64,000 nt of DNA from Escherichia coli. Lineage in GTDB: Bacteria; Pseudomonadota; Gammaproteobacteria; Enterobacterales; Enterobacteriaceae. The position numbers are program-made. Below, piece by piece: positions 27,001 through 33,000 of the stretch. Where the stretch lies: assembly GCF_044647545.1 (NCBI RefSeq), contig NZ_CP172818.1, one strand, 5' to 3'. Every line of letters starts with the position of its first letter. Position 1 is the stretch's first letter.

Positions 27001-30000
27001 CTTGATTATATCGACCTCTACTTAATGCACTGGCCCGTTCCCGCTATCGACCATTATGTCGAAGCATGGAAAGGCATGATCGAATTGCAAAAAGAGGGAT
27101 TAATCAAAAGCATCGGCGTGTGCAACTTCCAGATCCATCACCTGCAACGTCTGATTGATGAAACTGGCGTGACGCCTGTTATTAATCAGATCGAACTTCA
27201 CCCGCTGATGCAACAACGCCAGCTACATGCCTGGAACGCGACACACAAAATCCAGACCGAATCCTGGAGCCCATTAGCGCAAGGAGGGAAAGGCGTTTTC
27301 GATCAGAAAGTCATTCGCGATCTGGCAGATAAATACGGCAAAACCTCGGCGCAGATTGTTATCCGCTGGCATCTGGATAGCGGCCTGGTGGTGATCCCGA
27401 AATCGGTCACACCTTCACGTATTGCCGAAAACTTTGATGTCTGGGATTTCCGTCTCGACAAAGACGAACTCGGCGAAATTGCAAAACTCGATCAGGGCAA
27501 GCGTCTCGGTCCCGATCCTGACCAGTTTGGCGGCTAACGGGCAAATTCTCCCGGTGGCGGTAATGTTCCGCTACCGGACTTTTCAGAAATCATTTATTCC
27601 CCTCGCGTCCCGCCCGTTGCTACTCTTCCTTGTTCAGGAATGCCAAATATAAGGACATCATCATGCAGAGCCGGAAGCTCTTAAAGGAACAACTCATCTA
27701 CACCCGGGATAAACGCAACGGAGAGGTGAAAAACAGATGAAAATAATACTTCTGTTTTTAGCAGCCCTGGCAAGTTTTACCGTACACGCGCAGCCTCCTT
27801 CACAGACCGTAGAACAAACAGTCCGGCAGATTTATCAGAACTATAAATCAGATGCCAGTACGCCTTATTTCGGTGAAACCGGAGAGCGGGCGATAACTTC
27901 AGCGCGTATTCAACAGGCGCTTACCCTGAACGACAATCTTACACTACCGGGCAATATTGGCTGGCTGGATTATGATCCGGTTTGTGATTGTCAGGATTTT
28001 GGCGATCTGGTGTTAGAAAGCGTAGCGATAACCCAACCTGACGCCGATCATGCCGATGCCGTTGTGCGCTTTCGTATCTTTAAAGACGATAAAGAAAAGA
28101 CCACGCAGACACTGAAAATGGTGGCGGAAAATGGTCGTTGGGTCATTGACGATATTGTCAGCAATCATGGCAGCGTCTTACAAGCGGTTAATAGCGAGAA
28201 TGAAAAAACGCTGGCCACTATAGCTTCGTTGCAAAAAGAACAGCCGGAAGCCTTTGTTGCCGAACTCTTTGAACATATTGCTGATTATAGCTGGCCGTGG
28301 ACGTGGGTGGTTTCCGACTCTTACCGCCAGGCGGTCAATGCCTTCTATAAAACCACCTTCAAGACTACCAACAATCCCGATGAAGATATGCAAATAGAAC
28401 GGCAATTTATTTACGACAATCCGATCTGTTTTGGCGAAGAGTCGCTATTTTCACGCGTTGATGAAATCCGTGTCCTGGAGAAAACCGCCGATTCCGCCCG
28501 CATTCATGTTCGTTTTACGCTGACCAATGGCAACAACGAAGAGCAAGAACTGGTTTTACAGCGGCGCGAAGGTAAGTGGAAAATCGCTGATTTTATCCGC
28601 CCGAACAGCGGCAGCCTACTTAAGCAGATTGAGGCAAAAACCGCCGCCAGATTAAAACAATGAGCTGAATTAAATAACAATTAGCCGGAACAATAAATAA
28701 AAGGGAACACTATATGAAAACGATTTTCACCGTGGGAGCTGTTGTTCTGGCAACCTGCTTGCTCAGTGGCTGCGTCAATGAGCAAAAGGTCAATCAGCTG
28801 GCGAGCAATGTGCAAACATTAAATGCCAAAATCGCCCGGCTTGAGCAGGATATGAAAGCATTACGCCCACAAATCTATGCTGCCAAATCCGAAGCTAACA
28901 GAGCCAATACGCGTCTTGATGCACAGGACTATTTTGATTGCCTGCGCTGCTTGCGTATGTACGCAGAATGATAAAAAAATTCCCGGCAGCGTGTCAGTTG
29001 CCGGGGAGGCTGTTTGCTAAGAAAAACCAAACATAAGACATGATTATCCGCTCAACCTGTTTTTTTTCTCTCCTTCAACGAAACTCAAAAAAACGATAAT
29101 GAAAGAATAAATTGTTTCAACCATTGACCAATAATACGATATACCAATAATGATGAATTCAGTCCCATTTGCGAAGGAAGACCCCTGGCAAAATGCCCTG
29201 GTAAATAATATTTTTTGGTCCCTCGTCCTTTCCTTTCTGATAAAAAAAACAAAACACAAACCAAAGCGCGAACAGGCTGTGGTGGGTATCAAAAAAAAAC
29301 ACACAGAACATGGGGGCGAGTGAAAAAGAAAACAAGTGCAAATAGAAAACACGAGAGGGGACGAAACCCCAAAAGCGAAGGGAGAAAAAGAAGGAGAAGA
29401 GAAAAAAGGAGGGGGGAATAAACGCTTTTCTGAAAACGCACAGCGAACAAAAAAAAAATGAAAATAGGTTGAATTATAAAGAAAATATATTATAAAAAAA
29501 AGAGAAATTGTTAAAGAAGTGGTGATTCCCCCCGCCGAAGCGAGGGTATGCGGGAGAGGGAATTGAATAGAAAATGGTTTTGATTTTTGAGAAGAGAAGA
29601 AAAGGTCAGGAAAAAAAAAAAAAAAAAAAAAAAAAAAAAAAGAAAAAAAAAAAAAAAAAAAGAAAACAAAAAAAAAAATTTTTTATATTTATACCACTCG
29701 TCCTCGTAAGACAAAAAAAAAAAAAAAAAAAAAAAAAATTTCTCTTTGAAAAAAAAAAAAAAAAAAAAATTAATAAAAAAAATTGAAATTGAAAATAGAA
29801 AAAAAAAAAAGAAAAAAAAAATTTTTGATATATAATAAAAAGGGAAAAAAAAAAATAAAATTTAAGTCAACGGGTTGGCCGGCGGTCGACCACCCTTCTA
29901 ATTAACTATTTTTAAATAAAAAAACAAAATCGATTCTTTATTTATTAAAAAAAAAATAAAAAAAAATAAAAAAGAAAAAAAAAAAAAAATAAATAAAAAA

Positions 30001-33000
30001 AAAAAAATTAAAGACACCTTTAACGTCCAACCGCCGCTTTAGGGCGTTTCTTCGCACCAGCATTCACCGGACGAGATTGCGTAGACGACGCTTTTTTTGC
30101 CGTAGCAGGCATCTGACGCTGGGTCGCCATCGGCGTATGTTTAGTCAACGCCGGACGGGTATTGCGGTTCTGGCGGCGAGCCTCGCGCATCTCTTCAATG
30201 GTTGGCGCAGGCACTAAGCAATCGCGACGGCTGCCAATCAGATGCTTTTTGCCCATCGCTTCCAGCGCCTGGCGGATTAACGGCCAGTTTGCCGGATCGT
30301 GGTAACGCAACAACGCTTTATGCAGGCGACGCTGCTTGTCGCCCTTCGGTACGAAGACATCTTCACTCTTATAACCAATCTTCGCCAGCGGGTTTTTCCC
30401 GGTGTAATACATGGTGGTCGAGTTAGCCAGCGGCGATGGGTAGAAGTTCTGTACCTGGTCGAGACGGAAACGATGCTTTTTCAGCCACAGCGCCAGATTC
30501 ACCATATCTTCATCACGCGTACCCGGGTGCGCGGAGATGAAATACGGGATCAGATACTGTTCTTTACCTGCCTGTTTCGAGTAAGTATCGAACAGCTCTT
30601 TAAAGCGGTCATAGCTGCCCATGCCCGGCTTCATCATCTTCGATAACGGCCCTTCTTCGGTATGTTCCGGGGCAATCTTCAGATAACCGCCGACGTGATG
30701 GGTCGCCAGCTCTTTGATATAGCGCGGATCTTCTACGGCGATGTCATAACGCACACCAGAGGCGATGAGGATCTTTTTAATGCCTTTCAGATCACGCGCA
30801 CGGCGATAGAGATTGATGGTCGGTTCATGGTTAGTGTCCATGTGCGGACAAATATCCGGATAAACGCACGACAAACGACGGCAGGTTTGCTCAGCGCGTG
30901 GCGATTTGCAGCGCAACATATACATGTTGGCAGTAGGCCCACCGAGATCGGAAATCACGCCCGTAAAACCTGGAACAGTGTCGCGGATCGCTTCGATCTC
31001 ATTAATAATCGAATCTTCGGAACGGCTCTGAATAATGCGCCCTTCGTGCTCGGTAATAGAACAGAAAGAGCAGCCGCCAAAGCAGCCACGCATAATGTTG
31101 ACCGAGAAACGAATCATTTCGTAAGCCGGAATTCGGGCATTACCGTAAGCCGGATGCGGCACGCGCTTGTACGGCAGCGCAAAGACGCTATCCATCTCTT
31201 CGGTAGAAAGCGGAATAGCAGGCGGGTTGATCCATACATAGCGGTCGCCATGTTTTTGCATCAATGCGCGGGCGCAGCCTGGGTTAGTTTCGTGGTGCAG
31301 AATGCGCGAAGCATGGGCGTACAGCACTTTATCGCCCTTCACTTTCTCGAAAGAAGGCAGCAACACGTAGGTTTTTTCCCACGGTTTCGGGCGTGGTGGC
31401 TGCACGGTTACAGCTTTGGCTTCCTGCTTTTTCGGAGCTACCGGTTTGTTATCCGCGCACGGCAAATCTTCGCCATACGGATGCGGGATTGGGTCGATTT
31501 TCCCTGGGGTATCAAGACGGGTGGAATCCACACCGCTCCAGCCTGGCAACGCCTCTTTTACGATAATCGCGGTATTACGCACATCGCGGATTTCACTAAT
31601 CGGCTCGCCCATCGCCAGACGGTGCGCCACTTCCACCAGCGGACGCTCACCGTTACCAAACATCAGCATGTCGGCTTTCGAATCCACCAACACGGAACGG
31701 CGCACGGTATCGGACCAGTAATCATAATGCGCGGTACGGCGCAGGCTGGCCTCAATACCGCCGAGGATCACCGGCACATCTTTCCACGCCTCTTTACAAC
31801 GTTGGGTATAAACCAGTGTGGCGCGATCCGGACGCTTACCCGCGACATTATCTGGCGTGTAGGCATCGTCATGACGTAAACGGCGATCGGCGGTATAGCG
31901 GTTGATCATCGAGTCCATGTTGCCAGCAGTAACCCCGAAAAACAGATTCGGTTTACCCAGACGCATAAAGTCGTCTTTGCTGCTCCAGTCTGGCTGGGCG
32001 ATGATCCCGACGCGAAAGCCCTGCGCTTCCAGCATACGACCGCAAATCGCCATCCCGAAGCTTGGGTGATCGACATACGCGTCGCCAGTAACCAAAATGA
32101 TGTCGCAGCTATCCCAGCCAAGTTGATCCATCTCTTCACGTGACATCGGCAAAAACGGTGCCGGTCCAAAACAGGCGGCCCAGTACTGCGGCCAGGAGAA
32201 CAGGTCGCGATCCGGTTGGATCAGGGAGATAGAGCTCATTTTGCTTCCAGAAATGATAAAAAAATAATCAAAGGCCGGGGATTATACGCCGGAACGAAAG
32301 AGAAATCGAAAGGTATTCCATACTCGCCCTCCTCGGGCGAGTATGAAGATTACGGTACCGGATTGACCAACAGTTGCCCAATCGAACCACGGTCCGCCAT
32401 TTCCAGCGTCTGACTGTTGAAGTAGAACGGGAAGTGCGCCCAGGAAGGCTGACCGAAATAAACAAGCAGCTCCACTTGTCCGTCAACCCAAACGGTATCT
32501 TTCCAGCCTCTGTCTTCCGGGAACGGCATCGCGCCATTCACGTTACGGATCTGGAACATCACGCCTTCAATATGGAACGCTTGCGGCTCGTCCGCGCGCA
32601 CCGTCCAGCGTTCCCACGTTCCTTGCTGCGCAGTAACATCAATACGGTTGACGTCCCACAACTGCCCATTAATCCCCGGGTCATCACCCAGACTGATATC
32701 GCGACTACGAATCGGCGAACCGGCCATGATTTCAGTTGGCAGCAAGCGCATCGGAAGACTGTCTGTGACCAGCGGCAGAAGGCCGGTTGGGCGCAGCGTT
32801 AGTACCAGCGTAGAAACCAGAATGCTGGATGGCTCAAAGAAGCCGCGAATACGATCAACAATGCTCGCCGCTTCACCACAGGTGATCGACACTTCATCAC
32901 CGTTGCTCATATCCACCAGAATCTCGCGGCGCTCGCCCGGTGCCAGCGAAAGTTGCTTCACCGATACAGGAGCGGGCAGGAATCCCTGATCGCCAGAAAT

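Follow-up and report, generated by a model that had tools for sequence, protein, structure and literature searches.

Introduction

Two kinds of computational product provide the closest described counterparts of the sequence studied here. Autoregressive genomic language models have been documented to undergo low-complexity collapse and repetitive sampling (bioRxiv 10.64898/2026.01.17.700093; PMC12804078). In such collapses of Evo and Evo 2 generations, a plausible start near training-set sequence is followed by drift and then by text rich in homopolymers and repeats, and the reported cases comprise multi-kilobase runs that appear after hundreds of kilobases have been generated. Mis-consensus or unpolished gap filling in hybrid or reference-guided bacterial assemblies yields indel-rich sequence of low identity at repeats (IS3) and strain-specific insertions, between perfectly polished flanks and with large insertions missing compared to the true genome. 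The error rate in such regions is usually more or less constant and the base composition normal.

We analysed 64,000 nucleotides of an Escherichia coli contig (NZ_CP172818.1; hereafter the window), which carries an extremely A-rich stretch, designated Block B, between yqhH and ygiQ. The left-to-right decay, the locally dominant base bias and the recall of majority-type spacers resemble language-model collapse. However, unlike the reported collapses, the runs in the window do not exceed 31 nt, and the blocks of 0.17–1 kb are embedded in exact real sequence. Mis-consensus regions are resembled in location, flanks and missing insertions, but Block B decays to zero identity and to 70–75% A. According to the comparisons described below, Block B is almost certainly not a real feature. 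Several further variable sites of the window show damage of this kind.

Results

The sequences flanking Block B are intact and belong to an ST648-like lineage. To the left, yqhH (28714–28971, plus strand) encodes lipoprotein YqhH in an 85-aa open reading frame and is 100% identical to the gene of strain IMT16316. It is followed by a native terminator hairpin (28973–29006, minus strand) with a preceding A7 run, a stem of CCCGGCA and TGCCGGG (28982–28988 and 28999–29005) and a 10-nt loop. The hairpin was missed by the terminator pattern scan, in which loops were limited to 8 nt, and was instead recognized by comparison with K-12 and IMT16316; its K-12 counterpart is a bidirectional terminator common to yqhH and ygiQ. 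The sequence-only reading had described this hairpin as native-looking and preserved ahead of the block, and its complete identity to IMT16316 bears this out. To the right, ygiQ (30020–32239, minus strand) encodes an intact radical SAM protein of 739 aa. Both flanks are 100% identical to the ST648-like strains IMT16316 and MS6198 up to 29004–29006 and again from 30019, one nucleotide ahead of the ygiQ stop codon. The corresponding IMT16316 region is NZ_CP023815.1:2650957–2655615. Compared to IMT16316, only two SNPs and one 5-nt indel occur over about 19 kb on the left (10032–29004), and none over 30019–32289 on the right. The hairpin is thus the final native sequence ahead of Block B, which starts directly behind it at about 29006/29007, and not at 29040 as read previously, and ends at 30018.

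At the same place, between the terminator hairpin and the ygiQ stop codon, K-12 has 5 nt, while IMT16316 and MS6198 harbor a segment of 1.57 kb (1,572 nt, approximately 39% GC). This native segment contains two hypothetical genes with intact open reading frames of 305 and 115 aa, encoding WP_022646126.1 and WP_022646127.1. Among 5,426 complete E. coli genomes, about 127 (~2%) carry it. Neither protein matched an NCBIfam or PADLOC model, and the best family lead, DUF3828, stayed sub-threshold. The proposal that something had been inserted between terminator and ygiQ therefore holds in so far as relatives carry 1.57 kb there compared to 5 nt in K-12; it fails for the A-rich block itself, which is not the inserted element. 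None of the genomes compared shows this A-rich spacer.

Block B comprises about 1,012 nt with approximately 29% GC and 51% A (29007–30018), rising to 70–75% A where it has collapsed. As described from the sequence alone, it is an extremely A-rich block of about 1 kb that includes an A31 run (29611–29641), and its open reading frames encode poly-Lys or poly-Phe, as the ORF list confirmed. Besides A31, eleven further A-runs of at least 10 nt occur; those following A31 measure 19, 11, 26, 21, 12, 10, 11, 10, 15 and 13 nt. Between 29001 and 30000 the GC content is 0.286 and the AT skew +0.45, compared to a GC content of about 0.5 in the rest of the window, and mononucleotide entropy falls to 1.15–1.3 bits across 29600–29999. 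The A-richness and the homopolymers are far beyond chance, since all 18 homopolymers of at least 10 nt in the window fall into three garbled blocks.

Alignment with the native segment of the relatives divided Block B into two parts. The position is the same, the left junctions agree within 1–3 nt, and the first ~415 nt (29007–29421, plus strand) are collinear with ~550 nt at the left end of the native insert, corresponding to the 5' part of the WP_022646126.1 gene. This part is a decaying, deletion-dominated copy: over 28972–29421, 108 bases are missing and 9 are extra. Approximately 20% of the native bases are lost (28% of G, 28% of T, 8% of A), and 27 of the 46 substitutions introduce an A. 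Successive segments gave z-scores of 35.8, 4.5, 24, 9.3, 3.9 and 4.2, collinear throughout, and then values of about zero or below; similarity was significant only within 28972–29421 and had disappeared by about 29420. BLAST identity was 72.9% over 29112–29307 and 87% over 28500–29307, the latter range including about 500 exact bases of the flank. Within the first 400 nt of the block, changes affect more than 30% of positions, and beyond that 100%. Substitution rates at codon positions 1, 2 and 3 were 0.10, 0.10 and 0.10, and deletion rates 0.20, 0.22 and 0.23. Errors thus strike all codon positions equally, indicating noise rather than divergence under selection. All three frames are broken and fragments of the native protein are scattered over different frames. 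A diverged natural allele was rejected on the same grounds, the loss of frame and the lack of a third-position excess.

The remaining 600 nt (29422–30018) form a low-entropy, A-rich part with the A31, A26, A21 and A19 runs and tandem repeats, and are not detectably similar to the native insert or to sequence elsewhere. A permissive global alignment suggested hidden collinearity here, but its deceptively good appearance was rejected by shuffled controls. The native insert itself was likewise dismissed as the identity of Block B, as collinearity does not extend over the whole 1.57 kb and the intact ORFs of 305 and 115 aa are absent; only the insertion point agrees. The earlier view of the A-rich block as an inserted element is thus contradicted by a left part that is a frame-destroyed copy of the native insert and by a right part that matches nothing.

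Searches beyond the relatives gave no carrier of Block B among the 5,426 complete E. coli genomes (megablast and blastn). An exact 41-mer of the block gave no matches in GTDB species representatives or JGI metagenomes, exact look-up of ten of its ORFs among 15 billion proteins returned none, and a homology search with a 102-aa ORF returned no relative among 5.8 billion protein clusters. Plasmid and phage searches yielded only low-complexity chance matches of 60–230 nt at 66–82% identity, to replicons of Spiroplasma, Buchnera and Stammera. Horizontally acquired foreign DNA was rejected on the basis of these results. A mobile element was also rejected: the block ends show neither terminal inverted repeats nor a target-site duplication, the repeats present are of low complexity with none pairing both ends, and the ORFs, which are poly-Lys/poly-Phe or without relatives, include no transposase or other mobility gene. 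Rfam models gave nothing at gathering score within 28600–30400, which eliminated a structured RNA.

Comparable damage was observed elsewhere in the window. A garbled block running off the window start (1–704) is a noisy copy of two adjacent MS6198 genes, one yghQ-like and the other hypothetical, with approximately 22% substitutions plus indels. Its identity lies well below 79%, a value that refers to 2–1200 of the window against MS6198 and includes the exact stretch 705–1200; homology to K-12 begins at 723. Block A (8977–10031) covers the yghU–hybG spacer followed by a copy of an IS3-family element, a layout that is native in MS6198. On its left the native spacer suffers G-deletions and collapses to T12, C31 and C12, while the IS3-family copy is good at 9150–9560 and noisy at 9560–10028. 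As in Block B, neither 1–704 nor 8977–10031 shows a third-codon-position excess. Block C (51788–51954) consists of A/C-rich junk (with A22 and A13) around remnants of a K-12-type ygiC–ygiD spacer; relatives have a 3.7-kb assT-dsbL-dsbI island at this site. The limits of these three blocks coincide with ends of K-12 homology within about 20 nt, and smaller scars occur at 42418–42434 and 55409–55419.

At two further sites, islands of the relatives are replaced by exact spacers. An exact K-12-type ygiQ–ftsP spacer of 59 nt (32290–32348) stands where relatives harbor a 7.7-kb TRAP transporter/dehydrogenase island, and the adjoining bases are ST648-type alleles. Similarly, an exact K-12-type ygiN–parE spacer (43661–43713), which includes the K-12-type ygiN stop codon and the last codon and stop of parE, stands in place of a 7.3-kb siderophore-receptor island. 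The best contiguous matches for the two junctions among the 5,426 genomes reached 99.1% (ygiQ–ftsP) and 97.5% (ygiN–parE), and the combination of K-12-type spacers between ST648-type alleles occurs in none of the complete E. coli genomes compared. At these junctions the window is a chimera. mqsRA, a pure deletion relative to K-12, is handled cleanly. As a candidate backbone, K-12 MG1655 itself would agree with the spacers, but mqsRA, IS5 and the fimbrial operon, all specific to K-12, are lacking in the window. The claim is therefore limited to a layout of the K-12 type.

Every 31-mer of the window is unique, and the two longest homopolymers (A31 and C31) both measure exactly 31 nt. Repeated 31-mers are rare in any natural window of 64 kb, and a contig from a k=31 graph would not normally cross the IS3 copy.

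Discussion

The block was absent from all independent genomes and assemblies searched, and the same anatomy recurred at unlinked sites. Taken together with the sequence comparisons, this makes it very probable that Block B is a computational artefact and not real DNA, whichever route produced it, as the sequence-only reading had suspected when it proposed read mapping and PCR across the site. Against this stands the consideration that the collection of complete genomes could lack the true source strain. The true sequence at the site would be the 1.57-kb lineage-specific segment of the nearest relatives. Whatever produced the window would have rendered exactly, with the lineage's own alleles, those parts that can be aligned to a common K-12-type layout, and would have failed to reproduce DNA outside of it. 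Block B would accordingly begin on the true insert; bases would then drop out progressively, G and T most and A least, with substitutions mostly to A, until register was lost after about 415 nt and the output became homopolymer-rich and of low entropy. At the ygiQ stop codon it would then switch abruptly to the exact sequence on the right.

Three explanations invoke real DNA. If foreign DNA of extreme A-richness had entered between terminator and ygiQ, for example as a mobile element, a retro-copied poly(A) sequence or eukaryotic or endosymbiont DNA, this would agree with the site, a genuine insertion hot spot that is occupied in relatives, and with a composition far from that of the host. We consider it very improbable, as the first 415 nt show homology to the native insert, terminal inverted repeats, a target-site duplication and an intact ORF with relatives are lacking, plasmid and phage matches are low-complexity chance matches, the other E. 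coli genomes compared lack the block, and equivalent C-rich and A/C-rich blocks occupy other sites. In-place decay, with the two native genes turned into pseudogenes through localised hypermutation, slippage or AT-biased decay, would account for a left part that clearly derives from this insert with many deletions, in a region that is accessory and probably dispensable. Yet the ~19-kb left flank has only two SNPs and one 5-nt indel and the right flank no change, compared to more than 30% change inside, and an identity gradient from one edge with a perfectly sharp other edge fits no known mutational process. The same pattern at three or more unlinked sites, and chimeric K-12-type spacers that mutation cannot create, render this explanation hardly credible. 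Equally far-fetched is real DNA in which A-rich synthesis, either non-templated or driven by slippage, had replaced the native insert from one side, with similar events at other accessory sites. Possible sources would be the integration of poly-dA-rich cDNA from a defence reverse transcriptase or runaway replication slippage in an AT-rich gene.

The decay, the error spectrum, the absence elsewhere, the sister blocks and the chimeric junctions are observed; how the artefact was produced is inferred. Given an artefact, we lean towards a left-to-right generating or imputing step, such as a genomic language model or another neural infill, which would be good at recalling common sequence but poor at recalling rare sequence, and would collapse into repeats. 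Embedding the blocks in exact sequence would require a hypothetical infilling or splicing scheme. In addition, without the true sequence a model would have to recall an insert carried by only ~2% of genomes and, likewise, an IS3 copy in its correct place, which favors a process with noisy access to a real template. Inserts of up to 1.6 kb are partly rendered and islands of at least 3.7 kb not at all, as expected of reads placed on a backbone, and the equal lengths of A31 and C31 together with the lack of repeated 31-mers hint at a k=31 graph step. These points speak for the other route within the artefact class, a classical assembly, gap-filling or polishing artefact, which competes only with neural infill and which we regard as possible rather than probable. 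ST648-like reads would have been placed on, or used to correct, a K-12-type backbone; insertions of about 1.5 kb would then survive as a poor consensus of noisy reads beyond rescue by short-read polishing, while larger islands would be clipped off and the backbone spacer left. In line with this, parts of the 1.57-kb insert and of the 1.5-kb IS3 spacer are rendered, the 3.7-, 7.3- and 7.7-kb islands are absent with a K-12-type spacer in their place, and the mqsRA deletion is clean. The deletion-dominated, base-specific errors resemble a noisy channel, and the equality of A31 and C31 without a repeated 31-mer is compatible with a k=31 graph. However, homopolymers of 20–31 nt are not a normal outgrowth of sequencing errors, nor do such errors drift to a locally dominant base (C in the left of Block A, A in Block B, A/C in Block C). 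The directional decay with a sharp right edge and the lack of Ns argue against this route as well. Differences of only 17–64 nt are also garbled, which any read-based polisher would mend, and no public assembly has anything resembling Block B.

The biological weight of Block B is nil, because no new element is present here. Its relevance lies in quality control. The window is not a faithful genome: at least four blocks (1–704, 8977–10031, 29007–30018 and 51788–51954) and several small scars (42418–42434 and 55409–55419) are garbled, and K-12-type spacers silently take the place of two or three of the lineage's genomic islands. Findings that touch the garbled coordinates, or that rest on the presence or absence of islands in the window, should be discounted. 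What the locus really contains is an uncharacterised accessory module of two genes, inserted between ygiQ and its terminator and carried by about 2% of complete E. coli genomes.

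The yqhH-ygiQ locus in related genomes

A collection of 5,426 complete E. coli genomes was searched with megablast, which assigned the window to the region dkgA-yqhG-yqhH / ygiQ-ftsP. Block B is the A-rich stretch between the yqhH terminator hairpin and the ygiQ stop codon. Its flanks are 100% identical, up to approximately 29004 and from 30019 onwards, to the closest genomes, which were IMT16316, MS6198, ECONIH1 and strain ST648. All of these have a yqhH-ygiQ spacer of 1.6 kb with two hypothetical genes, 918 and 348 nt long. In K-12 the spacer comprises 42 nt, the hairpin is a bidirectional terminator, and the two homology boundaries lie just 5 nt apart. 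The native insert occurs in about 127 of the 5,426 genomes. At the IMT16316 locus (L001, on NZ_CP023815.1) its genes encode proteins of 305 aa (1552-2469 of L001) and 115 aa (2661-3008). The larger protein has a hydrophobic, signal-peptide-like N-terminus and a sub-threshold match to DUF3828 (E 0.055), the domain of the adjacent YqhG/Tai3-family protein, of which it may be a distant paralogue. The smaller protein is acidic and gave no family match; neither had hits in NCBIfam or PADLOC.

Block B starts as a degraded copy of the native insert

The composition of Block B is highly abnormal. GC content is 0.286 and AT skew +0.45 at 29001-30000, compared to a GC content of about 0.5 elsewhere, and mononucleotide entropy drops to 1.15-1.3 bits. 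The block contains A31 at 29611-29641 and eleven more A-runs of 10-26 nt, and its ORFs encode poly-Lys or poly-Phe, as the sequence-only reading had described. The hairpin at 28982-29005 was likewise found as reported. The start at 29040 had to be corrected, as abnormal sequence begins at approximately 29007, immediately past the hairpin. At the right edge, junk extends to 30018 and exact native sequence resumes without any recovery phase at 30019, 1 nt ahead of the ygiQ stop. All 18 homopolymers of at least 10 nt in the 64-kb window fall within 9060-9852, 29449-30007 and 51843-51954. The two longest, C31 (9095-9125) and A31 (29611-29641), are equal in length. No 31-mer is repeated in the window on either strand. 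Together with the equal runs, this would fit a k=31 step, or a run-length cap, in the production of the sequence.

Alignment to the native insert is exact through the hairpin; GTA is lost after 29005, then single G's and later longer pieces. BLAST identity was 72.9% over 29112-29307; over 28500-29307, where roughly 500 bases belong to the exact flank, it was 87%. When 75-nt segments were scored against shuffled controls, collinear similarity started at z=35.8, had dropped to about 4 by 29421 and was absent by the same measure at 29421-30018. Between 28972 and 29421, 108 native bases are missing and 9 are extra; losses affect 28% of G, 28% of T, 18% of C and 8% of A, and A is the new base in 27 of 46 substitutions. 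Codon positions 1, 2 and 3 do not differ in their substitution and deletion rates, the native reading frame is lost, and fragments of the native protein are scattered over different frames. The block is noise over a template, neither gene divergence nor foreign DNA.

No carrier of Block B was found among the 5,426 E. coli genomes, and GTDB species-representative genomes and JGI metagenome contigs contained no exact match to a 41-nt pattern taken from the most complex island of the block. Ten ORFs of Blocks A and B were absent from a set of about 15 billion predicted proteins, and the 102-aa ORF of Block B had no relative in 5.8 billion clusters. The matches in plasmid and phage searches were all short and of low complexity, and lay in AT-rich endosymbiont replicons. 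The region contains no Rfam family, and neither a terminal inverted repeat nor a target-site duplication was found at the block. An intact native insert was rejected because the collinearity and ORF tests failed, an IS or transposon for want of terminal repeats, target-site duplication and transposase, foreign DNA because no relative occurred anywhere searched, and a diverged allele because third-position bias is missing. On the testable criteria, Block B behaves as a computational artefact.

Garbled sequence and chimeric junctions elsewhere in the window

When the complete window was compared with IMT16316, MS6198 and K-12, sequence alignable to the K-12-type layout proved perfect, carrying ST648-type alleles with very few SNPs in 60 kb, while lineage sequence without a K-12 counterpart is garbled or missing. 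The window opens inside a noisy copy (1-704) of the MS6198 yghQ-like 'lipopolysaccharide biosynthesis protein' gene and the adjoining hypothetical gene. Substitutions, at about 22%, are its main errors; there are also indels, and two stretches of about 21 and 34 nt are extra. The errors are flat over codon positions, and the sequence is exact from 705. Block A (8977-10031), at the yghU-hybG spacer and IS3-family element of relatives, starts immediately past the yghU stop: spacer G's are dropped, T12, C31 and C12 follow, and about 514 native nt are skipped. From 9150 it lies inside the IS3-family element, which is present in MS6198-type relatives and absent in IMT16316, with about 97% identity to 9560, and is then noisy up to hybG. 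Block C (51788-51954), where the closest relatives carry the 3.7-kb assT-dsbL-dsbI island and K-12 has 37 nt, consists of A/C-only junk (A22, A13) around 17 nt (GGCACTCGCCATCCGGT) that match the hairpin of the K-12 ygiC-ygiD spacer exactly.

Two small scars were also detected. At 42418-42434, between ygiZ and mdaB, relatives have a short segment unlike K-12, and the two sequence types cannot be aligned; four G/T deletions and T-to-C changes turned ACCCTCCAG into ACCCCCA. At 55409-55419, the position of the ygiL-yqiI fimbrial operon in K-12, relatives have 64 nt in which the 3' end of ubiK lies; the gene is truncated in the window, where a few A-rich bases stand in place of about 61 nt of IMT16316 with the last codons and the stop. 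Compared to IMT16316, 5 nt (ATCAT) are missing at 20902 past the yghA-exbD terminator hairpin, one G is missing at 58549 (GGGGG versus GGGGGG), and GGGG is added at 58587-58590 in the sib/ibs region; these indels may be genuine differences between strains or additional scars. The mqsR-mqsA toxin-antitoxin pair, located between ygiS and ygiV in K-12, is absent from both the window and IMT16316, and the junction (38912-38918) is clean and the same as in relatives.

Two islands are replaced by exact K-12-type spacers. At 32290-32348 (59 nt) all closest relatives carry a 7.7-kb TRAP transporter/dehydrogenase island, and at 43661-43713 (53 nt, including the K-12-type ygiN stop and the last codon and stop of parE) a 7.3-kb island with a TonB-dependent siderophore receptor and ABC transporter. 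ST648-type alleles directly adjoin both spacers, a combination found in none of the 5,426 genomes. The best contiguous matches over the junctions reach 99.1% and 97.5%, respectively, compared to about 100% per flank in island-bearing genomes. Precise excision was rejected because island-bearing genomes no longer hold the spacer to be restored, and recombination because donor alleles would be imported with it; the junctions are therefore chimeric text as well.

Origin of Block B

The comparisons show Block B to be an unsuccessful rendering of the native insert (1.57 kb) by a process that was perfect on K-12-type sequence but poor on extra sequence. The proposal that a block had been inserted behind the terminator was partly supported: relatives do carry a segment there, but the A-rich block is a garbled rendering of it and not itself an inserted element. 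An actual insertion of foreign DNA and actual in-place decay are both, and equally, very improbable: homology to the native insert is seen in the left part, the flanks are nearly mutation-free, the same pattern occurs at unlinked sites, and chimeric spacers are not producible by mutation. Whichever the production route, Block B is almost certainly not biology, and we do not regard it as a real feature.

Among artefactual routes, we favour a left-to-right generating or imputing step as the more probable one. Such a step would fit the directional decay with an abrupt right-hand splice, the drift towards whichever base dominates locally (C in the left part of Block A, A in Block B, A/C in Block C), and the recall of common configurations verbatim but of the rare insert only briefly. 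It would also match the collapse documented for autoregressive genomic language models, which show low-complexity collapse and repetitive sampling (bioRxiv 10.64898/2026.01.17.700093; PMC12804078). Read consensus or gap filling over a backbone without the inserts is a less probable competitor. It would account for the size dependence, inserts of up to 1.6 kb being partly rendered and islands of at least 3.7 kb being absent altogether, and for base-specific, deletion-dominated errors; the hint of a k=31 step also points in this direction.
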